Below, piece after piece: positions 24,122 through 44,910 of a stretch of DNA of 64,000 nt; the first letter of the stretch is position 1, and each line of letters opens with the position of its first letter. Origin of the DNA: a virus; the IMG/VR virus record IMGVR_UViG_3300031963_012969. The stretch is one strand, 5' to 3'. Made by a program: the position numbers and the translations under genes. The notes under the pieces were generated by a model. That model was not told the origin of the DNA. It ran no database searches and saw only the letters and a program-made list of their open reading frames with translations.

Positions 24122-24123
24122 AG

Positions 24124-24462
24124 CTAATTTAATGATGCAGTGGTTAAACCACTTAATTCTTGTAATCTATCTCTTAGCAATCTTGCATAATCAGACTGAA
24201 GGGATCTAGTAAAAACTGTATCTTTTTTAACGCCGTCTTCTAGTATCATGTCCTTTAGACTATTTGCGGTTCCGGTAATCTTATCTATTGGCTTAGTCAG
24301 GTCAATCATTTTTCCATGTGTTCTAGAGAAAATAGATTTAGGAGTATTTTTTACGGCATTATATGCGGTTCCAATAAGTTTAAGTGCCATATCACCTCTA
24401 CCAGCCGTTTTATTAAGCTCTATGTCAAGCCTACTCAAATATGTATGTGTATCTTTGTTCAT
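24124..24462 (-). CDS. MNK-leader protein
   Basis: MNKDTHTYLSRLDIELNKTAG leader. Confidence 0.6.
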   Translation of the reverse strand: MNKDTHTYLSRLDIELNKTAGRGDMALKLIGTAYNAVKNTPKSIFSRTHGKMIDLTKPIDKITGTANSLKDMILEDGVKKDTVFTRSLQSDYARLLRDRLQELSGLTTASLN

Positions 24463-25022: not shown

Positions 25023-25023
25023 A

Positions 25024-28996: not shown

Positions 28997-30853
28997 TTAA
29001 TAACCAATTACATTCTTTGGCGGTTTACCAAATTCTTTGCCGTACGCTAATCCTGGTAACGGATTAGTACCATGTATATTAGATGTTACGTCACCCTTTA
29101 TGATATTTTTCTTTAAATTTTTTTGAACATAAGATGTTCCAAGTTGAGACATCCAATCTTTATCGTGAGATGGATTCTCCATTAATCTAACCATATTTGG
29201 CTTAAAGCTTGGTTCGTGATCTGAAACCAAAACTTGTTTTTCCTCCATGTCATTCAATTCCTTCGCTACACTTTTAGTGATCTTTGTTCCAATGCTATAA
29301 TTTAGTACTGGTGCTTCTAGAAATTTTCCAATAGCTTTTTGTGGCTCCAAATTTAATGAATCTTGCCTAGGAACATAGCTTTTACTGAAAGAGCTATACT
29401 CTACAACCTCATCCGGTAAGTAATGACTAGATTCATCAGCATCAGTAACTGTAACGTGATCAACAACGGCTCTAGCTACTAACTCAGCATTTCTCCTGGA
29501 TACATCTATACCATTATCTTTGAATGTATCCTGTATTTGCTTCAGTAAGCTTAATCTTCCAGCACCAATACCCTTTAATCTTACTACGTCAGCTGGGTTC
29601 ATCAATCCGCTTGACAGTCTGTCTCCTGGTTCTACCGTGTCTCCCCTTTTTACTAAAATTTGGTGATCTGGGGATACATAGTGTTCTTTTCCAGATACAA
29701 TAATACTTGATCCGCCTTGAGGTAATTTATCTACTCTATCAACTACGCCATCCGTCTCAGAAATAGAAGCTTTGTCTGGAAAAGTTTCCGGTACCTGAAA
29801 TAGTGCGTTTATTGCTTTAAAGCCAGTTACTTTTGCCACATTGGCTACGCCAGCTGAGTGCTTAGTGGAAAGAAGACTTTGGCTAAGTGGCTCCGTTAAT
29901 GCACTTGCAGCAGAAAGACCAACGGCATCCGATAAACTTGGCAACGTCCCACGCTCTCTGATACCACAGCACTTTGAGCATACACCGTTGTGCGCGTTGC
30001 ACGTCATTGCAGACCTAACCAATATTTTGCTTTTTCCCTGTTTTTGTATATCTTTTATAATTTTGGGGGTAATCAATGTGCCCGCAGGATATCCAGAAAT
30101 GCCCTTAGCCAAAACAGATCCAGCATTGTCCTTGTCATCAATTGTAACTGGAATACCTGAAGAAGTTTTGCAGTCGTCTTCAGTGACCAATAAATCCATG
30201 GCAGCTGCATTTATCTGTTTCGCTAAAAACCCAGAATTTTGAGTGGAGAATTTTGTAGCTATCAATCCGGCTCTAGTTCCATAACTAGCAGCGAAGTATT
30301 CAGCTGGGGTCATCCCTTGCGTGTAGGAACTTTTTATTCCTATAGGGACTGGAGTATTTGTTTGGTCCATAACCAAGAAGTCGGCACCTATATTACTATT
30401 TAATTGACTCTTGTTTCCTCTTGCTCCAGATGCAACCATTTTTGCCAAATTTGAACCCCTTTTAAGAGACGCGTCAAATATCATATCTGGCATTTTTGAT
30501 GAATATTTGTTGTACAACTTAATTAACTTATTTTCCTTCTCTTCCTGTGTCAAAGTTTTGTCCGAAAAAATACTATTTTCTTCGGTCGTAACTTGGTCCA
30601 TCAAACTTTTTTTATCTATAGGAGATTCAAGGTCTTTCATCGAGAAAGAGCTTCCAGTCTCCACCGCCCCTTTAGATCCTAGTCTAAGTAACTTAAAAGA
30701 TATATCTCTATATTTTTCTGGTTCGTTTTCGGCTATTCTTTGTAGGACATCTTTAACCTCTTTGCTACCAATAGGCCTATCGTCAGGAATATCATTTCTG
30801 AACCCTTCTGGGACAATAGAATTAAAAATAAGTCTAGCTACTGTAGTAGTCAT
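28997..30853 (-). CDS. DNA-directed RNA polymerase, beta' C-terminal part
   Basis: SGARGN, bridge helix (YFAASYGTRAGLIATKFSTQNSGFL), TEDDC, VRS..TC....GVCSKC zinc site, trigger loop EPLSQSLLSTKH. Confidence 0.93.
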   Translation of the reverse strand: MTTTVARLIFNSIVPEGFRNDIPDDRPIGSKEVKDVLQRIAENEPEKYRDISFKLLRLGSKGAVETGSSFSMKDLESPIDKKSLMDQVTTEENSIFSDKTLTQEEKENKLIKLYNKYSSKMPDMIFDASLKRGSNLAKMVASGARGNKSQLNSNIGADFLVMDQTNTPVPIGIKSSYTQGMTPAEYFAASYGTRAGLIATKFSTQNSGFLAKQINAAAMDLLVTEDDCKTSSGIPVTIDDKDNAGSVLAKGISGYPAGTLITPKIIKDIQKQGKSKILVRSAMTCNAHNGVCSKCCGIRERGTLPSLSDAVGLSAASALTEPLSQSLLSTKHSAGVANVAKVTGFKAINALFQVPETFPDKASISETDGVVDRVDKLPQGGSSIIVSGKEHYVSPDHQILVKRGDTVEPGDRLSSGLMNPADVVRLKGIGAGRLSLLKQIQDTFKDNGIDVSRRNAELVARAVVDHVTVTDADESSHYLPDEVVEYSSFSKSYVPRQDSLNLEPQKAIGKFLEAPVLNYSIGTKITKSVAKELNDMEEKQVLVSDHEPSFKPNMVRLMENPSHDKDWMSQLGTSYVQKNLKKNIIKGDVTSNIHGTNPLPGLAYGKEFGKPPKNVIGY

Positions 30854-30863
30854 TTAAAGTAAA

Positions 30864-32168
30864 CTATACCCTATGGTAATATATACACTCAAGTCCCTTA
30901 TTTTTGTCATACAAAAAAGCTTGAGCACACCTATTTGATGTAACATACCCAGAGTTGCTATGCCAAGCATCAGGTGCAGATAAACTTGGAATAACTCTTG
31001 CTATCACTCCACCCTCTTCAATTGAAGACTCTCTATGTAAATGGCCAAGATGCCACTCACAATAAACTGTTTTTCCCCACAGCTCTCTTTGTTCAACTTG
31101 AGCTATTCTAGTGAGTTGATTTAATTTTATTTTATCTCCGTGAGTGAAACACAAAAGCGTATTTCCAACTGCATGATATTTTCTAGATGTAGCTGCATTA
31201 TCTATTGATATGGTTTTAGAACCCTTGAAAAATGCTCCAAGGAACTCACCTAAATAAAAAGTTCTCTCTATGTCGTGGTTTCCTGGAACTATAATAACCT
31301 TTACTGGTGCAATTGAGTTGCATTGATTTATTGCCCATGTAGACAATTCACAACCTCTTCTAAAAGATTTTTGCCAACGACTATCTTCGTTCTGTGGAGT
31401 TCCATTACCTGTAGTATTTTCCTTGTTATTTACATTAAAGAAATCATTACCTATTGGTAGAATTATCTCCGATATTTTTTCGCCTTTGACTTTATCTAAA
31501 AAATCCAGCAAAGCTGATCTAAATTTTTCTATAGCCTCTGCAGAATTATAATTACTGTGTCCTGTTTCTTCTTCCCAAGCAAGTTTCCCCAAGTGTAGAT
31601 CTGGGATTGAAATTTCAAAAACCTTTCCACCAGAAACATTGTGCTTCTTTTGTGTAGTTAAAGAATTTTTTATGCCAGATATACAGCTATTAAAAATATC
31701 CGAAATGTTTTCTCGAGTTAATTGATTTCTTTTGAGCTGTGCTTTTACTTGGTACAAGTTCTTAGTTACAACGTCTCCGTCCTTTGATTTCATTCCAACT
31801 GGCCAAGTGTTAGCTGTCCACCTTTCGATTTGCCATTTTTTTAGGTCTATATTACAGGCGCTAATCAAGTCCTCCAATGTTTTAATATCTTCTGTTACCG
31901 ACTCTGCCTCCATTTCGTTCTCGTCTCCAACGCATCTAGTTTTGCTTTGTTTTTGAGGTACATGTTGTAATCCTTCCTTGGCGAACTCAAACGATTGTGA
32001 AAATTTTTCAAATAAATTAGATGAAGGTCTAAGTGCGTGTTCCACAGAGCTAAAACTACGCATTAATTTTTTTGCTATTTTGTCATACGTCAGACCATTG
32101 TTTTTGTAGTTGCAGGCTTTTTCAAACTCGTTTTTTGTCCAGGATGTGTTGTTTTTTTTGTTTATCAT
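30864..32168 (-). CDS. Calcineurin-like metallophosphoesterase with N-terminal HTH
   Basis: DLHLG, GND, GNHD, THG and GHLH motifs. Confidence 0.85.
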   Translation of the reverse strand: MINKKNNTSWTKNEFEKACNYKNNGLTYDKIAKKLMRSFSSVEHALRPSSNLFEKFSQSFEFAKEGLQHVPQKQSKTRCVGDENEMEAESVTEDIKTLEDLISACNIDLKKWQIERWTANTWPVGMKSKDGDVVTKNLYQVKAQLKRNQLTRENISDIFNSCISGIKNSLTTQKKHNVSGGKVFEISIPDLHLGKLAWEEETGHSNYNSAEAIEKFRSALLDFLDKVKGEKISEIILPIGNDFFNVNNKENTTGNGTPQNEDSRWQKSFRRGCELSTWAINQCNSIAPVKVIIVPGNHDIERTFYLGEFLGAFFKGSKTISIDNAATSRKYHAVGNTLLCFTHGDKIKLNQLTRIAQVEQRELWGKTVYCEWHLGHLHRESSIEEGGVIARVIPSLSAPDAWHSNSGYVTSNRCAQAFLYDKNKGLECIYYHRV

Positions 32169-32169
32169 C

Positions 32170-32394
32170 TTATTGTTCTTTTATTTTTATACCTAAATTT
32201 TTAGCCACTTGGTCAAAATCTTCCTGATCATCTCTTGATATAATCATTACTGGGCTTGGAGGCATTAACAATACTAACGCAACAAGGGTATTTGTATTAT
32301 CCCTTATCTCTATTGTTTTAACCTCTTTTGTATCTAGCAGTGGCTCTTCTAGGGGGTTATTTTTTGCAATAACTCTCAAAGAATAATCTGGCAT
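32170..32394 (-). CDS. Hypothetical protein
   Basis: 74-aa ORF tightly packed in the operon. Confidence 0.6.
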   Translation of the reverse strand: MPDYSLRVIAKNNPLEEPLLDTKEVKTIEIRDNTNTLVALVLLMPPSPVMIISRDDQEDFDQVAKNLGIKIKEQ

Positions 32395-32399
32395 GTTTT

Positions 32400-32858
32400 T
32401 TATTGTGCTGGTTGTACCTCAGTATTTGCTTGAGCCTGTTGATCGGCTGAAGCAGATTGCTGCTCTTGTTGAGCTGCTGCTTGCTGTGGATCTGCACCAG
32501 TTATTTGTGCCATCATTTGCTCTATTTGGTCAAGTCTTTCTTGAACACTTTTTTTCTTTTCCCCCTTACCACCCATTTTCATTGCCTGTAATTCCATACC
32601 AATTTGTTGAACAATTTGCATTGTTTGCTGCTGCATTTGTGCTAACTGCTCTAGCCCTCCCTGTATTAATTGTGCAAGCTCTGGAAATCCTATCTGAGGC
32701 TGACCATCAGTTCCTGGAGCTGGTGGAGGTGGCTGAGGAATTGATCCTTCTTGTTGAGCCTGTGCTATTGCTTGTTGTGTTTGGGGAGAGGACACAAAAG
32801 CTTTTTTATCTATCTTGTTTAATATTTCGTTTAATAACTCTGTATTAAAATTTAACAT
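32400..32858 (-). CDS. Gln-rich protein with KKA leader
   Basis: MLNFNTELLNEILNKIDKKAFV leader; Q/P-rich. Confidence 0.6.
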   Translation of the reverse strand: MLNFNTELLNEILNKIDKKAFVSSPQTQQAIAQAQQEGSIPQPPPPAPGTDGQPQIGFPELAQLIQGGLEQLAQMQQQTMQIVQQIGMELQAMKMGGKGEKKKSVQERLDQIEQMMAQITGADPQQAAAQQEQQSASADQQAQANTEVQPAQ

Positions 32859-32869
32859 ATATTTATTCC

Positions 32870-33487
32870 TTATCTAAAAAGTAACCTACAGGTCATAAAT
32901 TCTCCTGGGGATGTGTCGGCTACAGAAATTACCTTCAATCTTATTTGATCCTGTGGGTAAAATTCTTTTTCTTTTGTAAAAATCTCGTAATAAAATAACT
33001 TACTATCTTCTATTATAGTTTCATTTATAGTTGAGTTTGTATTCTCCTCTTTTAGTTGTATTACAGTAGAGCCGCCAACTGGGCTCATAAAAAAACTTAC
33101 CTGCATTCCGTAACAGATCAATGATTGTGTCCCAGGTATGTCAAAATAACCAAAAGTTTTCCCAGCAAATAAAGCTCCAGGAAAATAAAAATCTACAAAT
33201 CCAGGGGCCGAAGCAGAACCAGATGTAGTTCCTGGACCGGCACTCAGTGTTACTAATGAATTTATTGGTCTCCATACCACATTTCCGTCTAAGTCTAGTG
33301 TCGGAACCCAACCCTCGGTAGCCAAAGAAGATGGCTGACTTATGAACTCTTTCCAAACCTTACCGCCATCTTTTGTGTATTGTATAGAAAGAGACCCAGA
33401 GGAGGGGTTCCTATAAAATCTAGTTTTTTGGCTATCGACCAATGGGTTTGGTATAAAATGTTGGTCCCCTAAAATTGGATCTGGCAT
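32870..33487 (-). CDS. Hypothetical protein, possibly structural
   Basis: Beta-rich C-terminal domain; ORF packing. Confidence 0.5.
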   Translation of the reverse strand: MPDPILGDQHFIPNPLVDSQKTRFYRNPSSGSLSIQYTKDGGKVWKEFISQPSSLATEGWVPTLDLDGNVVWRPINSLVTLSAGPGTTSGSASAPGFVDFYFPGALFAGKTFGYFDIPGTQSLICYGMQVSFFMSPVGGSTVIQLKEENTNSTINETIIEDSKLFYYEIFTKEKEFYPQDQIRLKVISVADTSPGEFMTCRLLFR

Positions 33488-33490
33488 ACC

Positions 33491-34114
33491 TTAAATATTG
33501 AATAATTTTTTAATTAAACCCTTTGGTTTTTCTTCTTGTTTACTTAAATCCTCTGATTCTTCTTCTGGAAGATCTATTACCCCCACATTCAAATCAGTGT
33601 CTTGATTTGGTCTCTTTCTAAGACTTGTGCTAACCCTAATAACTTTCCCTTCCCCTACCCTCTTGGCCGCTCTACTCATGTTTAATATCATGGGGATTAA
33701 AGCAGCAGTCCCAAGTACCCCAGCTCCACCAATAATTGTTTTTTCTGTGGGGGACAATTTATCTAGGAATGGTTTTCTTATATGTTCTTGTGTTTTTGCA
33801 ATTTCATCTTGTGATTTTTGCAGTCCATGTAATGCAGGAATCGCTGCTAGAGCCACATCTTTTGTGGGTGCCAATAGAACAGTTCCAAGTCCTTTTGTTA
33901 CATCACCTTTTCTAATTAGATTACCACCAAGGGCTCCCGTAAGTAGATTGACTACACCGAGCCCAATTCTGGATGGGGTTACATCGCTATAGTTGTCTTT
34001 ATTCTGAAGGTAATCCAGTCCGCCAGCGGTTACACCACCTGTAATTAATGGGGTAAGCAAATTCTTAGCAACAGATGCATTTTTACCAAATAACACTGAG
34101 GGCTTCGTATTCAT
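33491..34114 (-). CDS. Glycine-zipper protein with KNA leader
   Basis: Start moved to MNTKPSVLFGKNAS; three Gly-rich hydrophobic helices. Confidence 0.55.
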   Translation of the reverse strand: MNTKPSVLFGKNASVAKNLLTPLITGGVTAGGLDYLQNKDNYSDVTPSRIGLGVVNLLTGALGGNLIRKGDVTKGLGTVLLAPTKDVALAAIPALHGLQKSQDEIAKTQEHIRKPFLDKLSPTEKTIIGGAGVLGTAALIPMILNMSRAAKRVGEGKVIRVSTSLRKRPNQDTDLNVGVIDLPEEESEDLSKQEEKPKGLIKKLFNI

Positions 34115-34121
34115 TTTTATA

Positions 34122-37100
34122 TTATGCACTAATTTCAACTGGTGTGTCGATTGATATTTCTCCCCTTCTGTATGCAGATATTACTTCTGATGCGTCTTTG
34201 AATTTTACTGAAGGTTTATTTTTGTCTATATTCGTTGTGTTGTAAAGTCCTAAAACAAATTCCTGAGATGGGGTATAAAATATCTTATTATCTTTTATTG
34301 ATAGTAAGTTTTTCGACGGCATTAATTTTTTATTAGCCTCTTGTATGGCGTCATCGGATACAGGTACATGTACATTCATTTGATCTCCATCAAAATCTAA
34401 GTTAAATCCTTTGACTATTAATGGGCTAACCTGAATAGAATCTCCTGTAACGAGTCTTGGGGTAGCGGCCATAATATTGAATCTATGTAGAGCTGGTGCT
34501 CTATTGTATAGAACTGGCCTTTCGGACATTTCATCAAGCAAGAATTTTTTAGCATAATCGCTTTTTCTTTCGACGTTTAATGCTGCTTGAGTAGATGGCA
34601 TCCCATTCTTAACCATTCTTCTCATCACAAATGGAGCATATAATTTCCATGCCATTTTTTCTGGAATACCTATGCTGTCCATATCTAGGTCGTCACTAGG
34701 AATTGTCACACCTCTACCGACTGTATTTACGGTGTGCCCAATTACCTTAGATAAAAACATTCCAGTCTTTGGGCCACCAGATCCTGCTAGTGATTTTATA
34801 AAACCTTTTACACCTTTTTGCTGTAATTTTGGGTGAAGTGGATCTCCAAGCCCCATCACAGCAGTTAATGCGTCATATACAGAAAGTTTTTCATCTCCAG
34901 CCTCTGATTCTCCAAACGCATCTTTAGATTCTCTATGAAGATCTCTAGCTGTCATTAAGTCTTTATATAAATAATTTGCATCAGCACTTAACATCATTTT
35001 ACCAGCCATCGATACAGGTCTATAGCTTGGGGGCAACACAGGAACTTTTTTCATAAAAAAGTCATCTTTATCTAATCCCTGTTTTCTTATTCCAGATAAA
35101 ATATTTAATTTTTTTACTGCATCATTCCTAGATGTTTTTGATCCATTTCTTATTGCGGATCTCAAGTCTTCTTCCATTCTATTGAAGTCTATAGATTGGT
35201 ATGCATTAACTAATGCCTCGGGTCCAGTTCTTCCATCAATCATTTCTTTTCCAGATAGAACGTCCCTCATTTTGTTCTCAGTGAGCCCAAGTAATTTTCT
35301 TAGTGGTTCTTCTAATATTGGATTTGGAATTGGCTCGTCCAATGATATGAAGCTCCAGTTTTTACCGTCTATGCCGTGCAACGATTGATCCATTAGACCA
35401 CCTTTTACGGGCTCCCCAGTTCTAGGGTTTATTGTTTCAGCATTGCTAAGTTCTCTGTTTTCAACTAATGAATCTATGTCCGCTTTTTTTAAAGCTTTTA
35501 TTGTTATATTTGCTCCCCTTTTGTCTGGATTGATTCCAGCCGCTTTTAGTGTGTTGGTGAATTTTTCATAGATAAAGGGGGTTTTTGGTGCTGGTAATGA
35601 CATGCCCATTTTTATAGATCTCCACATATCCACGTTTGCACCCGTCCTATAATTCTGAATATCGAATAAATTTTTAACAGCACCATGAGAAAGTAATGCC
35701 ATTGTATCTAACATACCTATTCTTTTTGCACTTTCTGATCCACCTGGTTTACCTGGTTGTTCGTTTAGGTCTGGATTACCCTCATCTATCGCGCTAAGCT
35801 TTGCGTCTGCTGTATGCTCTAGCTTTAGAAAATTTTGTATACCAGTGAGAACTTTTGGTATTACTTTATTTGTTTCTGGGTCCAGTAAGTCTTCTGTATC
35901 TGATACCTGATTAAGCTCTAATTCATTTTTTACGAAGTCGTGAAACGAGTCAGAAGAAAAGGATGGAAGTGTATATCTTTTTCCAGTCTTTGTGGCGACT
36001 TTTCCTAACAAAGCTTCATATACCATGCCTGGGTTAACTCTTCCAATCATGGCAGCTGGATTGATCAATATATCCACTGTGTTTCCGTCTTTATCCTTAA
36101 ACATCTTATCATCAGGAATTATTCGACCAATAACCCCCTTAGCAGCAAATCTAGATGATATTTTATCCCCAGGCTTTGCTGGAAAATTTGCTGATATGTT
36201 TACAGACAAACCTCTTCTTGTTTCTATGGCATCTATAACGTTACCATTTACGTTTTTTTCCCATGTTTGGCTTTTATCTATAAAAGATTTTTTGAGAATT
36301 TTATGTAGATTTCCCTTAGCTCTGTCTTCTGCCCTTAGAATCCTAGGAGCAACAGATAAAAATACTGGATCACCAGGATTTATTTCTGCGCCTGGTTTAA
36401 TCATTCCATTGTCGTCTATCTTGTTTAGCTGTTCCTTTGTGTATTTATTTGGGAACAATTGTATAAATTTATTTTTATTGGAAACTACTCCGTCCTTATT
36501 CTCTACATCAAATCCATATAAATGCGATGACGTAAGTTTAGATGCAGCGCCTTCACTAATTGTAATAGAGTCCTCAAACGTACCGCCCTGTTTTCCTGGC
36601 ATAAAAGCTACCCTAAGATTCTTGCCTATAGATAGTTCTCCATCTTTATTTACATAATTTGAATGAGCTAATGCTTGTCCGGTTTTAACTTGATCGCCTG
36701 GCTTAACTAATGGAGTATCTGTAGTAAATGTCTTTCTGTTGTGTGGATAAAAATATCTTAACTCCATGTCCACATCTTTTTTGTCTAACCCAGTTATTGT
36801 TATTCTATCGTTTGTTATTTTTTTAACTACCCCGTCAGTTGGGGACGCGACAACCCCTATTTTAGACCCTATGGTCTTTTCTAGTGGTTGTTCATTGTCT
36901 TCGTCTAATGACATTACAAGAGGTGGCTCTGGTTGTGCCATCGGCAAAGCTTGAGTAAAATACTTGCCAGCCATAAATGCTCTAGCCCCCTTCATTGTAC
37001 TAAACATTGGGGCTAGATTAATAGAGTCTGTATACACGTGCGAAGGGGACAATATTTTGTATTCCACTTCGTCTGGGGTAGCATAAGTTAACTTACCCTT

Positions 37101-37214
37101 TTTCATTGCTGGAACCGGGTAAGACGATTTTGATCCGTTAGGATCTATTACTTGTGGTAACGCATTCTTCTGGACAAAGTCTGGAAAAAGCTCTGAAAAC
37201 AAATCTTTTTTCAT
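34122..37214 (-). CDS. DNA-directed RNA polymerase, fused beta C-terminal + beta' N-terminal (catalytic) subunit
   Basis: beta motifs GKNLRVAFMP, FEDSI, GDKISSRFAAKGV, LKLEH; beta' motifs ETINPRT, PVLPPSYRP, NRAPALHR, FNLDFDGDQM. Confidence 0.95.
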   Translation of the reverse strand: MKKDLFSELFPDFVQKNALPQVIDPNGSKSSYPVPAMKKGKLTYATPDEVEYKILSPSHVYTDSINLAPMFSTMKGARAFMAGKYFTQALPMAQPEPPLVMSLDEDNEQPLEKTIGSKIGVVASPTDGVVKKITNDRITITGLDKKDVDMELRYFYPHNRKTFTTDTPLVKPGDQVKTGQALAHSNYVNKDGELSIGKNLRVAFMPGKQGGTFEDSITISEGAASKLTSSHLYGFDVENKDGVVSNKNKFIQLFPNKYTKEQLNKIDDNGMIKPGAEINPGDPVFLSVAPRILRAEDRAKGNLHKILKKSFIDKSQTWEKNVNGNVIDAIETRRGLSVNISANFPAKPGDKISSRFAAKGVIGRIIPDDKMFKDKDGNTVDILINPAAMIGRVNPGMVYEALLGKVATKTGKRYTLPSFSSDSFHDFVKNELELNQVSDTEDLLDPETNKVIPKVLTGIQNFLKLEHTADAKLSAIDEGNPDLNEQPGKPGGSESAKRIGMLDTMALLSHGAVKNLFDIQNYRTGANVDMWRSIKMGMSLPAPKTPFIYEKFTNTLKAAGINPDKRGANITIKALKKADIDSLVENRELSNAETINPRTGEPVKGGLMDQSLHGIDGKNWSFISLDEPIPNPILEEPLRKLLGLTENKMRDVLSGKEMIDGRTGPEALVNAYQSIDFNRMEEDLRSAIRNGSKTSRNDAVKKLNILSGIRKQGLDKDDFFMKKVPVLPPSYRPVSMAGKMMLSADANYLYKDLMTARDLHRESKDAFGESEAGDEKLSVYDALTAVMGLGDPLHPKLQQKGVKGFIKSLAGSGGPKTGMFLSKVIGHTVNTVGRGVTIPSDDLDMDSIGIPEKMAWKLYAPFVMRRMVKNGMPSTQAALNVERKSDYAKKFLLDEMSERPVLYNRAPALHRFNIMAATPRLVTGDSIQVSPLIVKGFNLDFDGDQMNVHVPVSDDAIQEANKKLMPSKNLLSIKDNKIFYTPSQEFVLGLYNTTNIDKNKPSVKFKDASEVISAYRRGEISIDTPVEISA

Positions 37215-37217
37215 GTA

Positions 37218-37823
37218 TTAATAAATTAAATATCTACGTATAAACATATTCAAAGAGTTCAAACATCTTTCAGATCTATATATTAAATAACTTATAGATT
37301 TCCAGAAATGTTTCCAGCCAGCTTTATTTAGCAACTTCCTAAATCTATTTATTAGTTTTTTATCCTTTTCCTTTTGTTCATGTATTAGTCTTTCAAAGCT
37401 AATTGAATGTTTTTCGGTTGTTTTTACCTCAACTAATAAAATCTTATCTAATTTCCCGTAAATAAAGTATGCATCAAAATCCATCCAGGTTTCCTCTGTG
37501 TCGGATGAGTCTATGCTACTATAAAATGTTATTTTGCCGTGATAGTCTATTTTCTTTGTATATCTATCTTTCTCTATTACTTCTTTCCAGATATTCCACG
37601 GTCTAACGTCTTTACTTTTTCTCTCTTCTTCAGAGAATGGTATGTATTCTCTTTCTACTATCTCTTCTACTAGATCTCCAGTTTCTGTTATGAAGTATTG
37701 ACTTAAACAATTATCTAAGTCTTTTGTTTGAAAATTTATTTCACTCCAATTAATTGAATGTTTCTTTAATTCGTCATTAAGTGGTAATTCTACACTGACT
37801 TTAATTTCATCGAACATCCCCAT
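37218..37823 (-). CDS. Conserved phage hypothetical protein
   Basis: MGMFD...FQTKDL.NCL..Y.I pattern, which I recall from phage proteins of unknown function. Confidence 0.6.
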   Translation of the reverse strand: MGMFDEIKVSVELPLNDELKKHSINWSEINFQTKDLDNCLSQYFITETGDLVEEIVEREYIPFSEEERKSKDVRPWNIWKEVIEKDRYTKKIDYHGKITFYSSIDSSDTEETWMDFDAYFIYGKLDKILLVEVKTTEKHSISFERLIHEQKEKDKKLINRFRKLLNKAGWKHFWKSISYLIYRSERCLNSLNMFIRRYLIY

Positions 37824-37828
37824 ATGTA

Positions 37829-38827
37829 TTAAGTTATATTTGCTGTGTTTATTGAATTATTGGAAACATTCTTAAATGCATCTGGATTCCTAATTATAGC
37901 GTCTATTATTGTTTTTTTAGGAACTTTGTTTCTTAGAGAATTTAAGTATGGATCTGGATTTTGCTGAGCTTTTCTTGCTACAGTTCTCGCAAGGAACCCA
38001 GGAACGCCTGGTATTTTCCAGTCGTGTTTTATAGCGTTATTAAAGAATTGGTCAACGTTTAAATTTTTAGACAAAATTCTTTTGTATAATCCCTCTGGTG
38101 TTTCATTTGGAATACTGGTCTGAAGTTGCGGCAATTGAGCGTTAGACTTTTTCTGGAACGGTTGTCCAACTGGCTGAAATTGATTTGCCTGTTGAGGCAT
38201 TTGTTTCATGGGAACAGACACATTAGATGGAATACCTGGTCCAGTGGATGTAGCGCTAGATGTATAAGTTGGTGTATAATTTTGATTTATCTGTCCAGGA
38301 TTACGCGCAGCCTCGTCCATGGAGTTTTGAACATTAAGTTTACCTAGCTCGCCTAACATTTGTCCTGTACCTGCTATAGTTTTAATAGGGTTAGCAAATC
38401 CATGCCAAGCTCTACCCATGACACCTTTATCTGCAACCTGTTGAGTTTCTGCTAAATTTTTTGCGGGATCCATTGCGACATCTACCCCTTGCAACGCCAT
38501 ATTTCCGGCCCATGCCCATGGTGCCGCTTTAGAAGCAAATCCCAATGCTTTCCCAGCCACTCCAGCTGCGTTAGATGATTGAGCCATCGCTCCAATTGCG
38601 TTATTCATTCTAGGAGCAACCTTTGACAAGTGATGACGTCCTTCGTGCAACAAACTGCTGGCTCCTGTACCGCCTTCGGCAATACTAACTGCTTGATGTA
38701 GTCCATGCCCGTGTCCAGTGTTTGCTACGGCAAGACCGTCACTTACAGCAGAAATTGGCTGACTAATTAATCTTGGAATGCTGCCAAATCCAGCCTTTTT
38801 ACTTAACAAAGATAATATTTTTTTCAT
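37829..38827 (-). CDS. Gly/Ala-rich protein with KKA leader
   Basis: MKKILSLLSKKAGFG leader; amphipathic Gly/Ala helices; Q/P linker. Confidence 0.55.
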   Translation of the reverse strand: MKKILSLLSKKAGFGSIPRLISQPISAVSDGLAVANTGHGHGLHQAVSIAEGGTGASSLLHEGRHHLSKVAPRMNNAIGAMAQSSNAAGVAGKALGFASKAAPWAWAGNMALQGVDVAMDPAKNLAETQQVADKGVMGRAWHGFANPIKTIAGTGQMLGELGKLNVQNSMDEAARNPGQINQNYTPTYTSSATSTGPGIPSNVSVPMKQMPQQANQFQPVGQPFQKKSNAQLPQLQTSIPNETPEGLYKRILSKNLNVDQFFNNAIKHDWKIPGVPGFLARTVARKAQQNPDPYLNSLRNKVPKKTIIDAIIRNPDAFKNVSNNSINTANIT

Positions 38828-38839
38828 ACAATAATGTCA

Positions 38840-39733
38840 TTAACTGCATCTGCATCTCCACTTCCTTAGAGCTTTGTTTATTCTACTATCTGGATCATTT
38901 TTTGTTTCAGCCCCAGTTCTTCTTTTTTTCATCCCACACATTCTGGAGCAGAAACTGTTTTGTCTGCTTTCTCTTTTACCTTTTGGATTTTTTTCAGTAA
39001 CTGGAGCTTTTAGGTTGCCGCCAGTTTGTTTATTGTAACTTGCTCTACCTTTTGCATTTAATCCGCCCTCCGAGTTTTTCCCTTCAGATCTTTGCCACGC
39101 CGGAGACTTTGCCATCTTATCTGGCAAAAAAGTTACAGCTTGTTCAGCCGATTTCGTCAATCTATTCCACTGCTTTTTGTCTGGATAATCTTTATCCCCA
39201 GGTTTAGCTGGTTTTTCGCCCCTTTGTCTTTTTGCTCTTATGTTTGCCCAAAGGCCAGGTTTTTCATCTTTTGCTAACTTGGGAAGAAAACTAACTTTAT
39301 TCATATTTTTATTATATTTCTTGGTTTTATATTCGTCCATAAGAACTTTTAATGCTTCTGGGTCTTTTACTAATTTAGTTGGGTCAATGGCCCAATTCCT
39401 CAGTGCATACGCTCTTCTTGGGGTTGGATTAGACTGAAACATTTTACCGCCGTGCCTAGCCTTAAAAGCAATCCACCTTTTAATTTGCCTTTTGTCGTCT
39501 TCCATTCTTCTGCCCTCGGAGTATCTTTTGTACCACTGCAGCCACCCATGAGGATCAGCTGGATGGTACCAGTGTTGTGGCCACTCAGGTAAACTCGCTA
39601 GTCTTGGTGCATCCTGGGGGCCGTATACCTCTCCGTATACCCCTATTTCCTTAAGTTGATCTGGAGTAAAATCTGGCAAAAAACTGGTTTCTACGTCTTG
39701 CTGCTTTTCTTTATTGTCTTCTGGATTGCTCAT
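38840..39733 (-). CDS. Modular polyprotein: DPHGWLQWY domain + PGLWANI module + DUF6321-like domain
   Basis: Three recognisable basic modules separated by KLA, KSA and KMA; start moved to MSNPED. Confidence 0.65.
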   Translation of the reverse strand: MSNPEDNKEKQQDVETSFLPDFTPDQLKEIGVYGEVYGPQDAPRLASLPEWPQHWYHPADPHGWLQWYKRYSEGRRMEDDKRQIKRWIAFKARHGGKMFQSNPTPRRAYALRNWAIDPTKLVKDPEALKVLMDEYKTKKYNKNMNKVSFLPKLAKDEKPGLWANIRAKRQRGEKPAKPGDKDYPDKKQWNRLTKSAEQAVTFLPDKMAKSPAWQRSEGKNSEGGLNAKGRASYNKQTGGNLKAPVTEKNPKGKRESRQNSFCSRMCGMKKRRTGAETKNDPDSRINKALRKWRCRCS

Positions 39734-39790
39734 TAAACAGATTAAATTAACACATTTAATGTATATATACAAATAAGATATCTGTCATCT

Positions 39791-39833
39791 AAAAAAAAGG
39801 TGGAAGGAGCTTTCGCCCCTTCCACACTTTTTT
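39791..39833 (-). terminator. Intrinsic terminator closing small-gene cassette B
   Basis: GTGGAAGG...CCTTCCAC stem around a GCGAAAGC loop, then T8 on the minus strand. Confidence 0.88.
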
Positions 39834-39990
39834 AGCTCAACTGTTTTATTCCCAGTATTGTAATTGGGAATTTTTTGTTGAGCTGTTTCCAGGCCTGGGC
39901 AACATGCCCACGGCTTTCTCCATACCTAACTGCCTTAAGTAGTTTAATGGGGTTAGGCTGTTGTCTATATGATATTTCAAATAGCTTCAT
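39832..39990 (-). CDS. 52-aa hypothetical protein (not in ORF track)
   Basis: Hand-translated MKLFEISYRQQPNP...GIKQLS; ends exactly at the terminator. Confidence 0.6.
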   Translation of the reverse strand: MKLFEISYRQQPNPIKLLKAVRYGESRGHVAQAWKQLNKKFPITILGIKQLS

Positions 39991-40387
39991 CTTTTTCATA
40001 TAGTATTGTGCAAGTTGACCATACTACAGACGCCAAAAATACATTAACAATCAAATAGATGGATAATGTAATTGGTGACAGTAGTGCGATTACTGCTCCC
40101 CAAAGGGCCACTGCGGGTACCTCTGTGTAGCAGATTTCGTCTGCTATCTTTCGGCACATCCACCCTGGGACATTGTATTTGTCTAGTCTTTTGCCTAGAA
40201 AAATAACAATTGCTATTAATGGGGTAAAAACCCCAACTAGTATTGAGGGTACAAAACCAATCTTCAGTAAATCTACTGCAGATTGCCATGTGTCGTTAAT
40301 GGCAGTGTATCTCATTATAATACCAGATATAATACTTATTATAAGTACATAAGGAAAATACAATGCTAACTTTTTTGCTATTTTCAT
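39977..40387 (-). CDS. Multi-pass membrane protein
   Basis: Start moved to MKIAKK (ATGA overlap); about four hydrophobic helices. Confidence 0.65.
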   Translation of the reverse strand: MKIAKKLALYFPYVLIISIISGIIMRYTAINDTWQSAVDLLKIGFVPSILVGVFTPLIAIVIFLGKRLDKYNVPGWMCRKIADEICYTEVPAVALWGAVIALLSPITLSIYLIVNVFLASVVWSTCTILYEKDEAI

Positions 40388-40590
40388 GTTTTTATTTTGT
40401 AGCCGTATTCTGCGCATAGATCCGCAAACGCAGATACGCAGTACCCAGCAATAAAGTCACTTGCGTGACTTTCTTCCCAGTGAGGATGTCTCTCAAGCAA
40501 AATGGTTTTAAAGTTTTGGATGTTTTCACATCCAAAATCATTTGCCAGCTCTTGCTCTATTACATTATATGTTTTTTGAATACTACTCAT
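40384..40590 (-). CDS. Hypothetical protein
   Basis: 68 aa, ATGA overlaps at both ends. Confidence 0.65.
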   Translation of the reverse strand: MSSIQKTYNVIEQELANDFGCENIQNFKTILLERHPHWEESHASDFIAGYCVSAFADLCAEYGYKIKT

Positions 40591-40748
40591 TTTGTGTAAT
40601 ATCTATACATGTTACCCTGTCTACTGATTTGCTGTAGCCATGTCTCCGACCCGAAAGTATAAACGGGTCTCGGATCTGGATTCCTGAATGGAAATAATTT
40701 TTCCATTCCTCTTGTCACGGCAAACACTAATATGTTTTTGATCTTCAT
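40587..40748 (-). CDS. 53-aa hypothetical protein (not in ORF track)
   Basis: Hand-translated MKIKNILVFAV...YRYYTK; ATGA overlaps with both neighbours. Confidence 0.65.
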   Translation of the reverse strand: MKIKNILVFAVTRGMEKLFPFRNPDPRPVYTFGSETWLQQISRQGNMYRYYTK

Positions 40749-41095
40749 AATGAGACAATGTATGTTTTAACTTTATTGTATGTATCTATGCACTTATCCT
40801 TGATGTGACTTACAATACCGCTATCATCTTTTTGAAGGCGGATTGTCTGTATTGCCAATTTTTCATTAGCAGTTAGATTGTTTAGATCCAACTTATTGAA
40901 CTCCTCACTGGAGCCCTGTGAAGCTACGGTGAGCGCGACTTTAAAGTCGCCGCTAACCGTGTTGTCTTTGATTTGATTGTTTACGCTGTAAATGTACAGC
41001 ACTGCACTGAACAATAGGCAGAGTACTGCGCTATTGACTAGGATTACGTTGCTCATCATTTTAGCTATTTTTATTACTGGTTTCATGGTGTTCAT
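40745..41095 (-). CDS. Membrane-anchored hypothetical protein
   Basis: One N-terminal TM helix; CAA-rich leader. Confidence 0.65.
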   Translation of the reverse strand: MNTMKPVIKIAKMMSNVILVNSAVLCLLFSAVLYIYSVNNQIKDNTVSGDFKVALTVASQGSSEEFNKLDLNNLTANEKLAIQTIRLQKDDSGIVSHIKDKCIDTYNKVKTYIVSL

Positions 41096-41238
41096 GTTGT
41101 TTGGTTTTGTTGTTGGTTGTTATATAAAAAAAATCGAGTTTTGCCACTGGCCGATTTTTTAGAGCCAGCTATTATTTTTAGGACACTTTTAAATCTTTTT
41201 TAGGGATCCGATAGGGTGTATCCTAGAATATTTCCTAT

Positions 41239-41277
41239 CAATATATTATGGCTAAAAACACCTGTTTTTTGGTACCC
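41239..41277 (-). promoter_or_regulatory. Candidate phage-specific promoter, copy B
   Basis: GGGTACC-N17-AGCCATAATATATTG. Confidence 0.65.
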
Positions 41278-41280
41278 CTA

Positions 41281-41308
41281 TTGACTTTTTCGATATAACT
41301 GATATGGT
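41281..41308 (+). promoter_or_regulatory. Sigma70-like promoter for tRNA-Gln and the glycosyltransferase
   Basis: TTGACT-N16-TATGGT with a TG extension, 17 nt before the tRNA. Confidence 0.5.
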
Positions 41309-41325
41309 TTTCTAATTACCACCAG

Positions 41326-41398
41326 TGCCCTCTGGGGGAATGGTAGACCCAACCGGCTTTGAACCGGTCTTTTCTAGGTTCGAGTCCTAGGGGGGCAG
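41326..41398 (+). tRNA. tRNA-Gln(TTG), CCA not encoded
   Basis: TGCCCTC/GGGGGCA acceptor stem; ACCGG-CTTTGAA-CCGGT; GGTTCGAGTCC. Confidence 0.88.
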
Positions 41399-41414
41399 CA
41401 TACAAAAACAAAAC

Positions 41415-42425
41415 ATGAAAAAAGTATTATTTTGGCCATATAAATATAATAATATGGGAGCAGATTGGTCTATTCCAGTATTGCACTTAATTAATTGCTT
41501 TAAATCTCACAATTTTCAAGTGTTAAGACATCCTAACTTTAAATTTACTAATGACATAGATACAGAAATTTATGACTTCAATAAACACAGGGATGATATA
41601 GATATTTGTATATACAATCATACAGATATATCTTTAATAATTGGAAACGTAATAAAATGCCGCAAAAATTTATTTTTTAAGCCCACAGTCCCTGAGCGCG
41701 GCTATACAACATTAGATGAATTAGGGTATGGGCCGTATTCCTCAATTACATACGAAAAACCAAAATTTGATATTTATTCAACGGAAGAAATAAATAATTT
41801 TTACGAAACTGAAGTTAAAAACTGGATAGACATGAGGTCCAATAAATGGTTTAAAGATTTTAATCCTGTAGAAAAAACAATAGAAGAAGATGATTACTAT
41901 TTAATAGTAGGACAATGTTATGGGGATGAAGTCATAAAAAGACATGAATTTGGATCATACAAAGAAAAAGTAGAACAAATCATAAAAGAAATAAGTAGAA
42001 TAGATACAACCAGAAAAATTATTGTTAAACTTCATCCATACGTCAATGGGGCAAAAGAACCAATGGTGGGTGGATTTGGCGAGCAAATAAAAAGTGAAAT
42101 AGAAAAAATTTCAAGCTCTGTAGTTGTATATACAGGCAATTTAAGTATTCATGATTTTTTACCTAAAGCTCGTTGTGTATTTATTGCTAATTCTGGGGCT
42201 GGGATAGAAGCGATGATGCATAACAAGCCAATAGTTTCTTGGGGAAACCCAGAATATCACTGGGCAACATATAGACTTATTCACCTAGCAGACATAATAA
42301 GAGCTATTCGAGTAGAGGACTGGTTCGATAAATTTAAGCAACAACAATTTTTGTATTGGTATACAAAACACTACTGCTTCTATAATTATGAAAGTTGTTA
42401 TAGAAGAGTAGGAGAAGTTATTTAA
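41415..42425 (+). CDS. Capsule-synthesis (KpsC/KpsS-like) glycosyltransferase
   Basis: VKLHP and SIHDFL...V...NSGAGIEAMMHNKPIVSWG.P.Y motifs. Confidence 0.75.
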   Translation: MKKVLFWPYKYNNMGADWSIPVLHLINCFKSHNFQVLRHPNFKFTNDIDTEIYDFNKHRDDIDICIYNHTDISLIIGNVIKCRKNLFFKPTVPERGYTTLDELGYGPYSSITYEKPKFDIYSTEEINNFYETEVKNWIDMRSNKWFKDFNPVEKTIEEDDYYLIVGQCYGDEVIKRHEFGSYKEKVEQIIKEISRIDTTRKIIVKLHPYVNGAKEPMVGGFGEQIKSEIEKISSSVVVYTGNLSIHDFLPKARCVFIANSGAGIEAMMHNKPIVSWGNPEYHWATYRLIHLADIIRAIRVEDWFDKFKQQQFLYWYTKHYCFYNYESCYRRVGEVI

Positions 42426-43863
42426 ATTTTAGGTATTGAGTTGCTCCAGGAGTCAAACCAGAAACAGAGTCTAATGGAGCCTGGGTTAGTATCTTTCTAG
42501 ATTCGGGGAATGCAACAACCGATTGGCTCATCTTAATTGCATTAATATATTCGTTTTTACCAGTTTTAACATTCTGTACCGGAAAATATATATTCCCATC
42601 GCTACCTTTTTTAGCAACCATTGAAAATCTCTGGTCTACTCCAATGTTTTTAGATTCAGAGCTTCTTATTGGGTCTATAACCATAACCTGGCTGGGAGAA
42701 ACATTTCTGCTTGAGACAGGTATTGCGTCAGAAGACGTAATAGCTCCCTCCCCTGTCTGCACAACCCTTTTTTGGTAGTCGTATATCTCAATGGGATTTA
42801 TCCCAGCTATATGATTGCTCAAGCTATTCCCCACAATAAGTCCCTCTAGTTGCGGAGAAAAATATCCAGCACGCAATCCCTTAAGAGTTCTGTTATATGT
42901 GGACCTATACAATAATGTAGATGCCAGCTTACCAGTATCTTTAGATACCCTCTCGGAAAATAGATCTTCTGGACCAACAAAATTTTTGTTAGCCATGCTA
43001 TCTCTGTCATCCTCGTCTTCTAGCCCCTTTTGTATATTAAGTAGTTTTTGACTAGCTCTAAGCATCATCATTGGAGATAGATTTTTATCGCTAGTACCAA
43101 GCGTTCTTTGTCCTACCTCTGGATCTATCTCTGATTTATTTAATTCTGAAATTAGGTCTTTTAATTTTGTTTTATCGTCTGCATCTGGATTAGCTTTTCT
43201 GCCTAGTAATTTGTCGTAAAACTTATAGAAAGACCTATCATCATCTTGCCCCTTATTAACATCCAGGATTTCAGGACCCCAAAATTTCATTATCTGATCA
43301 TCATCTACTCCCATTCCCTTTAAGACTGGATATAGCTTGATTCTGCTTTTTCCTATCATAACTCTATACACACCCGTTTCTGGTTCCATAAATATTCTCA
43401 TTCCAGATCCAGTTCCGGCTACAGTATTTACGTGACTCTCTAGCTCCCCGTTGTCTTTTCTCCTAGCGTACACTCCAGGCTTAAGTCTTTGCTGGCCAGC
43501 AACCAAACTATATTCACTACCTCCATTTATAAAAGTACCCCTATGAGTCATCCACGGGACTCTCGCAAGCACACCATCAAATTGGTCTAATACTTCATTA
43601 TTTTTTTTATCTATCAGTGATACCTTTCCGTAAAGAGGAACAGATAGTTTATCCCCCATCAATAACGCCCTTTTTTCGTCTGAAAGAGAAAAAGGTTTTT
43701 TTAAATCATATCTAATGTCAGAAGCCTCTATTCTTACTTTATCATTTTCTAGCGGAAATCTGTTTTGATAAGCAGATAAAACTCTATCCAAAATGTCTTG
43801 TCTGAGAGACGATGGATTATCGAATCCCCTAAGTTTTACTCCTTTGGGTTCTTGTATTACCAT
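42418..43863 (-). CDS. DNA-directed RNA polymerase, beta N-terminal part
   Basis: PWMTHRGTFINGGSE...RLKPGVY, DDRDSMANK, INP...KRV..TGEG, RNVSPSQ...DPIRSSESKNIG. Confidence 0.92.
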   Translation of the reverse strand: MVIQEPKGVKLRGFDNPSSLRQDILDRVLSAYQNRFPLENDKVRIEASDIRYDLKKPFSLSDEKRALLMGDKLSVPLYGKVSLIDKKNNEVLDQFDGVLARVPWMTHRGTFINGGSEYSLVAGQQRLKPGVYARRKDNGELESHVNTVAGTGSGMRIFMEPETGVYRVMIGKSRIKLYPVLKGMGVDDDQIMKFWGPEILDVNKGQDDDRSFYKFYDKLLGRKANPDADDKTKLKDLISELNKSEIDPEVGQRTLGTSDKNLSPMMMLRASQKLLNIQKGLEDEDDRDSMANKNFVGPEDLFSERVSKDTGKLASTLLYRSTYNRTLKGLRAGYFSPQLEGLIVGNSLSNHIAGINPIEIYDYQKRVVQTGEGAITSSDAIPVSSRNVSPSQVMVIDPIRSSESKNIGVDQRFSMVAKKGSDGNIYFPVQNVKTGKNEYINAIKMSQSVVAFPESRKILTQAPLDSVSGLTPGATQYLKFK

Positions 43864-43875
43864 TTATAATTAAGA

Positions 43876-44910
43876 TTAAGAATTAAATCCTACTGCAAAA
43901 CTTTCGAGTATTCTCTTTTTGTATTTCTCAAGCTTTGCTAAAGCCTCTGGATCAAGAGCGTCCAATTGAACATTACCGGAGTCAGTGGTCATAACCATAG
44001 TGTTAGGGTCAACTTTTTGAATATCCTCGCTTGAAACTATTGGGTTTCCCCTTCTGCTTTCTCTGGCTTTCTCTTGTGGGTCCTGTTCACGACTATTTAA
44101 GTTGGAATCGGGATTAACAACTTTTTCAATTGTATCTATAATTGATGTTGAGGCGCCTTTTGTTAACAACATGTCTTGTTCAGATTCTTCTTGGACTGGC
44201 TTTGAGACTATTTTTACAAATTTAGGGGCACTCTTCATCTCAGAAGCTTCCTCTTTTTCAATAGCTCTATCTATATTTTTTTGTCTATTGTAATAATAAT
44301 TATGAGCGCCTATTCCAGCAAGTAATGCAGCAACTCCAGGTAAACTTGTTAAAATCGTACCAACTGTCTCTCTACCTGATCCATCGCTAGGATTAGCTTT
44401 TTTTATTAAATCTTGAGCAGCATTCTTTCGGTAATCCTCAGAAGGAGTTCTGTGAACTTTGTCAGCAATAGATAAAATCAAACCATCTAGCACTGGATAC
44501 TCTGCTGTCTTTGAGTCAACAGTCATTTGCTGTGACATGTAATCAGCATATTGTTTTTTAAGCGACTCCAGTTCATTATCTAGTTGTTTCTGCCTCTGTT
44601 TCTTTAATATACTGTTTACAATCGCGTATCCAGCGCTGCCGCCAGCCAATGCAGATCCAGCAGCAAGTGGAGCGTCCCATAAATATTGTCCAAGTTCTGG
44701 AGCGGCTGTTTTAGACGGTACCTCTATCACAATGGTGTCTCCGTCTTGCTTTTTTTTAGTTGCCTCCTCTTGTCTTTTTTTTAACGCTAGTATGTGGGCT
44801 ACTCCAGCTAACCCAGCACCAATTCCTGCTGCAGGTAATCCGTGTCTAGATAAACTATCCTTTAACATATCAAATGTTAATCCTGGTACTGATGCTGCTT
44901 CTTTTCTCAT
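43876..44910 (-). CDS. Glycine-zipper protein segmented by K-x-A motifs
   Basis: Three hydrophobic helix + basic coil units preceded by KEA, KTA and KKA. Confidence 0.55.
   Translation of the reverse strand: MRKEAASVPGLTFDMLKDSLSRHGLPAAGIGAGLAGVAHILALKKRQEEATKKKQDGDTIVIEVPSKTAAPELGQYLWDAPLAAGSALAGGSAGYAIVNSILKKQRQKQLDNELESLKKQYADYMSQQMTVDSKTAEYPVLDGLILSIADKVHRTPSEDYRKNAAQDLIKKANPSDGSGRETVGTILTSLPGVAALLAGIGAHNYYYNRQKNIDRAIEKEEASEMKSAPKFVKIVSKPVQEESEQDMLLTKGASTSIIDTIEKVVNPDSNLNSREQDPQEKARESRRGNPIVSSEDIQKVDPNTMVMTTDSGNVQLDALDPEALAKLEKYKKRILESFAVGFNS

Follow-up and report, generated by a model that had tools for sequence, protein, structure and literature searches.

Salmonella phage Arash and Vibrio phage D69 encode a multisubunit RNA polymerase (RNAP) in two chains, the first of which carries the whole of β fused to the N-terminal portion of β′; the Arash paper labels the chains β and β′, and the fusion is not described there (PMC10585845). 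The multisubunit-RNAP-encoding Caudovirales (mReC; Weinheimer and Aylward 2020, PMC7481178) are uncultured tailed phages, a set of 97 contigs taken from IMG/VR, whose β and β′ sequences can readily be aligned to the cellular enzymes and branch as a separate clade. That study used β and β′ as markers, and fusion, splits and inteins are unmentioned for these phages (PMC7481178). Reviews of jumbo-phage RNAPs do not describe a three-piece layout (PMC7598289, PMC7824862, PMC13282480). Here, we analyzed a 64,000-nucleotide (nt) stretch of viral DNA, IMG/VR record IMGVR_UViG_3300031963_012969 (the window, by which the whole stretch is meant), in which an RNAP of this kind is encoded by three separate genes. 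The three-piece form is new, and the family to which it belongs is known but under-described. In the reading that we consider probable, this is a β/β′-fused phage RNAP, present as a single set, whose second gene fission is labile and near-neutral and which is packed into the virion.

The genes of the window RNAP and the parts of its chains that are compared below are the following:

42418..43863, minus strand: β-N chain, 481 amino acids (aa); Pfam Rpb2_2, matching E. coli RpoB ~50-617 by BLASTP
42421..42498, minus strand: C-terminal tail of the β-N chain, residues ~456-481, ending in G-A-T-Q-Y-L-K-F; from the alignment and the tails of 55 stand-alone β-N chains
34122..37214, minus strand: middle chain, 1030 aa, β C-terminal part (623-1336) followed by β′ N-terminal part (~30-552); from Pfam and BLASTP
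37110..37214, minus strand: leader of the middle chain, residues 1-35, with D-L-F..L-F-P and then K-x-A (16-18); from the 9 closest clusters
35460..35531, minus strand: β/β′ junction, the β C-terminus running into β′ through ~11 linking residues; from the alignment with E. coli and relatives
34383..34403, minus strand: catalytic N-L-D-F-D-G-D loop, residues 938-944 of the middle chain; from the alignment
28997..30853, minus strand: β′-C chain, 618 aa, matching β′ 572-1407; Pfam Rpb1_5 and Rpb1_4, BLASTP and alignment

The three open reading frames (ORFs) are collinear in the direction of transcription and are separated by gaps of 5,203 and 3,268 nt. An initial annotation, made by a model from the sequence alone, had described collinear chains of 481, 1030 and 618 aa split by 5.2 and 3.3 kb, which the ORF and Pfam analyses bear out. 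The Pfam search revealed Rpb2_2 in the β-N chain; Rpb2_6 (E 1e-39), Rpb1_2 (6e-24), Rpb1_1 and the first third of Rpb1_3 in the middle chain; and Rpb1_4 and Rpb1_5 (6.5e-26) in the β′-C chain. The window RNAP is a multisubunit two-barrel enzyme of the β/β′ type, and both double-psi barrels lie in the middle chain. Alignment and Pfam agree with the annotation that both barrels and the N-L-D-F-D-G-D loop share one chain and that the motifs are readily alignable to RpoB and RpoC. As judged from the alignments, the catalytic residues are intact across the chains. In particular, D940, D942 and D944 of the middle chain are almost invariant in alignment A2, and the equivalents of the two active-site lysines of β (K1065 and K1073) and of β H1237 are present in the middle chain in the multiple alignment, which also places the bridge helix, the trigger loop and the second zinc site all in the β′-C chain. 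In the same alignment, β SI2 and β′ SI3 are missing from the window RNAP, as is the N-terminal zinc finger of β′, a deletion common to the whole phage family. The three pieces are equally conserved, with identities of 76, 75 and 77% to those of the related locus L004.

The AlphaFold2 (AF2) model of the middle chain showed a predicted local distance difference test score (pLDDT) of 88 and a predicted template modeling score (pTM) of 0.78. The leader was disordered in this model, with pLDDT below 50 for residues 1-29, and the β/β′ junction was well ordered (pLDDT 86-94). A Foldseek search with the model gave bacterial RNAP β chains as the top matches, and the best solved-structure matches of the β-N chain were cyanobacterial and plastid β chains.

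The break points were set by BLASTP against E. coli K-12 RpoB and RpoC, with sequences from locus L039. Residue 451 of the β-N chain corresponds to β 617 and residue 23 of the middle chain to β 623; at the other end, residue 562 of the middle chain corresponds to β 1336, its residues 644-1028 match β′ 160-550 (31.7% identity, E 5.5e-47), and residue 3 of the β′-C chain corresponds to β′ 572. The breaks fall at E. coli β ~618-623, in a loop that reaches up to ~632, and at β′ ~553-570, close to the manual estimates in the annotation (~620-635 and ~555-570). They lie within Rpb2_45 (E. coli 591-656) and Rpb1_3 (489-644), respectively, and coincide in the alignment with loops of variable length, namely β ~622-632 and the β′ hairpin 553-569. 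Judged in this way, the split positions are non-canonical, being inside Pfam domains, but are located in variable loops. The β′-C chain begins directly in conserved β′ sequence. The ~26-aa tail of the β-N chain and the ~35-aa leader of the middle chain have no homolog in unsplit relatives. The short non-homologous leader with Q-K-N-A noted in the annotation was recovered, with Q-K-N-A at residues 15-18, and the K-x-A it contains is invariant in the 9 closest clusters. The annotation's description of the three chains held in each point that was examined.

Compared with the enzymes of Arash and D69, to which it is 29-34% identical over the full length, the window RNAP shares the fusion of β to the β′ N-terminal part, the β′ break at the same hairpin, the lack of the β′ N-terminal zinc finger and the location of its genes by the portal gene. 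In contrast, β-N and β-C form one chain in Arash and D69, which gives two pieces, and these phages encode sigma-like proteins that were not detected in the closer relatives of the window. Cyanobacterial and plastid γ/β′ (rpoC1/rpoC2) resemble the window in that β′ is broken shortly after the catalytic barrel; however, the cyanobacterial break is ~65 residues further C-terminal (γ chain 8h3v_E), in agreement with the annotation, which had placed the window's break upstream of it, and there is neither β/β′ fusion nor a β split. The natural rpoB-rpoC fusions of Helicobacter and Wolbachia are full-length cellular enzymes that have α, ω and σ. They join the β C-terminus to the β′ N-terminus as in the window, but have no further splits and keep the β′ zinc finger. 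In Ralstonia phage RP13, the β′-N chain stops ~35 residues short of the break position of the window. The enzymes of the phiKZ/AR9 type have no α, which was likewise not found in the window's relatives, and one of their sets is packaged in the virion (PMC7598289, PMC7824862). They differ in having two sets, where the complete relatives of the window have one, as well as 4-5 separate chains, no β/β′ fusion and far more divergent sequences.

A megablast search of the 17-kb region against the phage collection gave no nucleotide match. By tblastn against this collection, full-length collinear matches were found in Arash and in Vibrio phages D69, D181 and D148; Arash gp206 (1525 aa) comprises the whole of β and β′-N, and gp216 (606 aa) is β′-C. 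IMG/VR provided 13 informative loci, whose architectures were read from ORF maps. One ORF encodes the enzyme in L005 (2083 aa), L007 (2078 aa) and L012 (2531 aa, with an intein); two ORFs do so in Arash, D69, L008-L011, L013 and L014; and three ORFs are found in the window, L004, L015 and L006, although β′-C was not found at the locus of the last. Locus L003 ends before β-N. In the window and every relative mapped, the β C-terminus continues into β′ within one ORF. An exhaustive profile-free search yielded 2267 proteins at E ≤1e-30; its best 150 representatives (50% identity) all belonged to this phage family (E <1e-210), which comprises more than 150 clusters at 50% identity. Among these top representatives, 131 of 150 were chains joining β-N to the middle part across a junction of 9-14 aa. 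The two-chain form is dominant in the family, and the three-piece type accounts for ~39 middle-chain clusters (90% identity) and ~55 clusters of stand-alone β-N chains.

Each of four complete relative genomes contains one RNAP set. The α subunit (PF01000) was not found in these genomes or in a 99-kb near-identical contig, with controls positive in 14 of 14 genomes. Sigma70_r2 and homologs of Arash gp196 were not found in the four complete genomes either, nor anywhere in the five relative records searched, where divergent factors could escape detection. The window RNAP is probably the sole RNAP set of its phage. It belongs to an Arash-like family in which β is always fused to β′, and the phage itself is uncultured, with a genome of about 175-200 kb. 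This family is probably the mReC group, to which it was matched by source collection and description, both having β and β′ that are alignable to cellular enzymes.

To order the breaks, concatenated trees were rooted on four bacterial RpoB+RpoC pairs; the posterior mean site frequency (PMSF) tree came from a quick search. The phage clade (window, Arash, D69 and IMG/VR relatives) was separated from the four bacterial outgroups with a support of 100. The one-piece clade was sister to all split forms, with Shimodaira-Hasegawa-like approximate likelihood ratio test (SH-aLRT) values of 84 (LG+G4) and 97 (LG+C20 PMSF), and the three-piece clade was nested within the two-piece forms. The latter clade was monophyletic with a support of 100, or 97 on a 210-row tree with P0210 and P0284 included. 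Architecture fits the rooted trees with a minimum of three changes. Additionally, the β′ junction is compact in the one-piece forms, and bacteria are unsplit there. Based on the rooted trees, this compact junction and the unsplit bacteria, the simplest history would be a β/β′ fusion, then a β′ split, then a β split, and finally colonization of the gaps. The phylogeny and split-point mapping proposed with the annotation therefore support an order from one to two to three chains, with the window as a derived member. The ancestral fused enzyme that it postulated gains support as well, in that the relatives with a single ORF (2083 and 2078 aa) branch as sister to every split form.

The β junction is labile. 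On the 210-row tree, its split or joined state changes about 8 times, some of these changes resting on unverified gene calls. Outside the main clade, P0052 (L045) is the sole independent β split that looks real after contig checks; P0247 proved to be a scaffold-gap artefact, and P0259 begins at a contig edge. Four joined proteins (P0013, P0020, P0175 and P0177) lie inside the split clade, with linkers of 53-115 aa. P0013 is one ORF on its contig, and its sister L057 has β-N and middle-chain genes side by side, with a stop codon, a single base and a frame change between them; one indel is the difference between the two. The AF2 model of the first 1150 residues of P0013 had a confident β fold (pLDDT 85, pTM 0.80), in which linker residues 473-546 were below 50 and the flanks above 85. 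These results indicate that the β break lies in a permissive surface loop, predicted to be disordered, where it is easily made and unmade.

The β junction is also a hot spot for added domains. An unnamed module of ~65 aa, S-D-x-G-N-Y...W-x-V-D-S-E...T-H-x-P-T-G-x-R-Y-H-L-P, recurs in middle-chain leaders, re-joined linkers and one β-N tail; its carriers are P0014-P0016, P0020, P0021, P0060, P0128 and the β-N chain of L006. In P0027, a 233-aa middle-chain leader with a haloacid dehalogenase (HAD)-like D-x-D-G-T motif stands in its place. A relation of the leader module to the DUF6321 domain of the neighboring 310-aa ORF was considered and rejected, as the two are unrelated. The L006 β-N chain (L006:4101-6518, a 47%-identical relative) contains an in-frame inorganic pyrophosphatase at residues 316-446 (PF18823, E 2.7e-49). 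Relatives also carry in-frame insertions of ~1 kb that are inteins by their domains (Intein_splicing, LAGLIDADG_3 and PT-HINT). They occupy at least six sites of the RNAP gene in L008, L010, L011, L012 and many others, with up to four per chain and chains of up to 3038 aa, and one recurrent site lies beside the β active-site lysines (middle-chain residue ~353). In the complete 224-kb relative L009, the β′-C ORF (L009:19360-22986) runs to no fewer than 1209 aa, roughly double what is usual, and has a long C-terminal extension. In a distant lineage (32-33% identity; L044:10001-13036, i.e. P0062, and P0061), the chain consists of β-C and the first ~95 residues of the β′ part, which suggests another break point.

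In the mechanism that we propose, three separately translated chains would assemble without covalent joining. The lobe, protrusion and fork would come from the β-N chain and the bridge helix, trigger loop and downstream cleft from the β′-C chain, with both catalytic barrels and the Mg-binding loop in the middle chain; the β/β′ fusion may replace the tethering role of α, which was not found in relatives. A single-chain ancestor of ~2080 aa would first have been broken in the β′ hairpin loop (E. coli 553-570). The second break, in the window's clade, would have followed in the β loop (E. coli ~618-632), a disordered stretch at the surface, as a gene fission that is labile and near-neutral, and both gaps would afterwards have been colonized by accessory genes. 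By homology with Arash, for which the same was proposed, the enzyme would probably be synthesized late, enter the head and be injected for transcription of the early genes.

The portal gene and the contents of the two gaps are as follows:

48054..49787, minus strand: portal gene, homolog of Arash gp204; found by tblastn with Arash gp204 and the D69, L005, L007 and L014 homologs
37218..42425, mixed strands: block from β-N to the middle chain, with ORFs of 201, 332 and 310 aa (the 310-aa ORF with DUF6321)
41415-42425, plus strand (convergent): KpsS/KpsC-like capsule glycosyltransferase gene (PF05159, E 1e-16)
41326-41399, plus strand: tRNA-Gln (TTG), in the block from β-N to the middle chain
39800-39825, minus strand: strong terminator, in the same block
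30864..34138, minus strand: block from the middle chain to β′-C, with clade-conserved ORFs of 215, 205 and 152 aa and a 434-aa SbcD-like phosphoesterase

The β-N and middle-chain genes belong to different transcription units, with the convergent KpsS-like gene, the tRNA-Gln and the strong terminator lying in the gap. As the gaps hold protein genes, a tRNA and a terminator, and Rfam detected no intron in the window, they consist of ordinary genes and not of intervening sequences. Their content varies among near relatives: the tRNA and glycosyltransferase island is missing from the 75%-identical loci L004 and L015, and the SbcD-like gene, which has a Metallophos domain, and the 201-aa ORF are limited to the window and the 96%-identical contig L003. 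One match in the block between the middle chain and β′-C was to phrog_704 (E 1e-76). No homolog of the KpsS-like gene was found in the phage collection searched. In T4-like phages, a homing endonuclease inserted in nrdA reportedly cuts an essential enzyme gene whose halves reassemble without splicing. The window differs from this case in that its gaps contain several unrelated genes and no endonuclease gene; in the relative L053, a free-standing HNH endonuclease gene (229 aa, L053:9327-10016) occupies the β-split gap, immediately upstream of the middle chain.

In most stand-alone β-N chains (55 tails), a disordered tail, often rich in proline, leads to a short terminal motif. This motif is G-A-T-Q-Y-L-K-F in the window's subclade and of the A-A-D-L-L-x-F type elsewhere, and many middle chains carry a related motif at their N-terminus or close by; in the window's subclade, the leader has D-L-F..L-F-P followed by the invariant K-x-A instead. 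In P0013 and L057, the two motif copies are identical or nearly so as peptides and differ at most synonymous positions, which shows that the peptide is under selection. A search of the window's other proteins, of those in 99 kb of the 96%-identical relative and of those at ten related loci did not recover the extended motif, and the window and the 99-kb relative contain no further ORF with the terminal β-N motif at its end. A general head-protein code was rejected, since the remaining proteins of the window and those of twelve related loci show no enrichment of the extended motif (K/R, then A-x-D/E-L-L). A sliding-clamp tail was likewise discarded, because no DnaN or gp45-type clamp gene was detected in the relatives and no replisome protein carries that tail. 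The K-x-A alone is modestly enriched (1.87-fold, p = 0.005) in the first 30-40 residues of window ORFs, occurring in 21 of 38 in the head block and in 4 of 19 outside it.

Several points weigh against a near-neutral second fission in a virion enzyme. The placement of the root rests on bacteria, which are distant outgroups. Conservation of the tail and leader peptides despite synonymous divergence argues against a wholly neutral break. The joined forms within the split clade also allow a long-linker ancestor with several independent splits. The virion mass spectrometry comes from the two-piece Arash, and packaging in the three-piece members would follow by homology. In the Arash preparation, 116 of 272 proteins were detected, including nucleotide-metabolism enzymes, and carry-over is possible (PMC10585845).

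If the β cut is not neutral, an amphipathic peptide pair on disordered tethers could form a docking module that clasps the halves together or loads the procapsid, with release at K-x-A. We regard this as a tentative and rather unlikely idea, in which, if true, the pair would be a device built expressly to assemble or deliver a polymerase of several chains. The two motifs were not docked by AF2, and a mutual clasp was rejected as a universal rule, as L053 has the leader motif without the β-N tail and L006 has neither in clear form. A related possibility, to which we give distinctly less weight, is that the ancestor of the three-piece forms had a long linker with two peptides of the K-A-A-D-L-L type that was cut post-translationally, for example by the head protease, and that gene splits repeatedly replaced cleavage. 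The long linkers of the four joined proteins, with two motif copies in P0013 and at least one in P0020, fit this history, as do the K-x-A within the motif, the clustering of all four joined forms in one subclade of the split clade and the synonymous divergence of the two copies. However, it requires about seven or more independent splits, compared with one split and at most four re-fusions; furthermore, the motif stands before or after K-x-A depending on the lineage, and the extended form is absent from the other proteins searched. That RNA splicing or split-intein protein trans-splicing reunites the pieces as one or two long chains appears extremely improbable. Relatives do carry many true inteins in the RNAP gene, and fractured genes with split inteins have been described in a metagenomic report (PMC2677866). 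Against this, the gaps contain protein genes, one of them on the opposite strand, together with a tRNA and a terminator, and Rfam finds no intron; the tail and leader are too short for intein halves; Pfam found no intein domain in the three chains; and β′-C starts straight in conserved sequence. A labile, near-neutral fission is the reading of the second break that we prefer.

As the annotation had stated, the RNAP is embedded among head genes. Besides the portal gene, a weak match to a head maturation protease is located at 17146-18474 and a weak match to a major head protein at 13380-14372, and the tail sheath gene is at 6486-9242. The order of portal and then RNAP is kept across the family, and each of the three RNAP genes lies 3-12 nt from its upstream neighbor. 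The position of the RNAP genes within this tightly packed head-gene block makes late synthesis and head packing probable. In sucrose-gradient particles of Arash, gp206 gave 3516 spectra and gp216 gave 1210; these were the top mass-spectrometry hits, with counts exceeding those of the major capsid protein (PMC10585845). The authors propose early transcription by the RNAP and note possible carry-over (PMC10585845). By analogy, packaging of the window RNAP in the virion would be slightly favored, being the more likely reading in view of the conserved portal-side position and the single RNAP set in complete relatives.

The annotation had further proposed that the enzyme was cut into three because short chains are needed for head packaging and passage through the tail. 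We consider this improbable, and the comparison with relatives did not support it. The location among head genes, the presence of homologs in Arash virion preparations and the middle-chain leader with its conserved, modestly enriched K-x-A are in keeping with the idea. On the other hand, the most-detected Arash virion chain has 1525 aa, L005 and L007 have chains of ~2080 aa, and other relatives chains of 1450-1550 aa, at this same place beside the portal gene, two-piece forms dominate the family, and joined and split states interconvert among sisters. Moreover, N4 and crAss-like phages eject polymerases of 2000-3500 aa. It is also unlikely, if by no means negligible, that the window RNAP is a non-virion polymerase for middle and late genes, with host RNAP serving the early genes and the Arash signal reflecting carry-over of an abundant late protein. 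Such a role would suit the one RNAP set per relative, unlike the virion and non-virion pairs of phiKZ type, the sigma-like factors encoded by Arash and D69, and the carry-over raised by the Arash authors themselves. It is opposed by the spectral counts of the RNAP, the highest among Arash proteins and above those of the major capsid protein, by the location in the head morphogenesis block by the portal throughout the family, and by the finding of no Sigma70_r2 match or gp196 homolog in the four complete closer relatives. Packaging of a single, β/β′-fused RNAP remains our preferred reading. If the enzyme is injected with the DNA, widespread environmental phages would begin infection independently of host transcription, with a single polymerase as opposed to the two-enzyme phiKZ scheme.

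The family is among the largest groups of virus-encoded cell-type RNAPs and is barely described. It shows that the catalytic core tolerates a β/β′ fusion, the loss of α and of the β′ zinc finger, and interruption at two loops where no cellular enzyme is known to be split. With enzymes in one, two and three chains, re-joined forms and inteins, the family offers ready-made natural experiments on modular RNAP assembly, and in the L006 β-N chain a pyrophosphatase is built into an RNAP subunit.

Some further features of the window were observed. The accessory island between two of the RNAP genes, at 39977-42425, contains two small membrane-like ORFs in addition to the terminator, tRNA-Gln and glycosyltransferase gene. 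Directly downstream of β′-C, a 2-oxoglutarate (2OG)-Fe(II) oxygenase gene is found at window:28342-28932 (PF13640, E 7e-15); it is 77% identical in L003, compared with 90-96% for neighboring genes. Three tRNA genes (Glu-TTC, Thr-TGT and Met-CAT) lie on the minus strand at window:13048-13281, just downstream of the major head protein gene. A Shine-Dalgarno sequence is absent upstream of most window genes, for example at 43864-43908 and 37215-37259, where the sequence is AT-rich; together with the G+C content of 36%, this may hint, as a weak guess, at a host that does without Shine-Dalgarno sequences, for instance a member of the Bacteroidota. Finally, six window ORFs (11184-12608 and 23282-25046) begin with M-N-K-Y/D-x3-Y.

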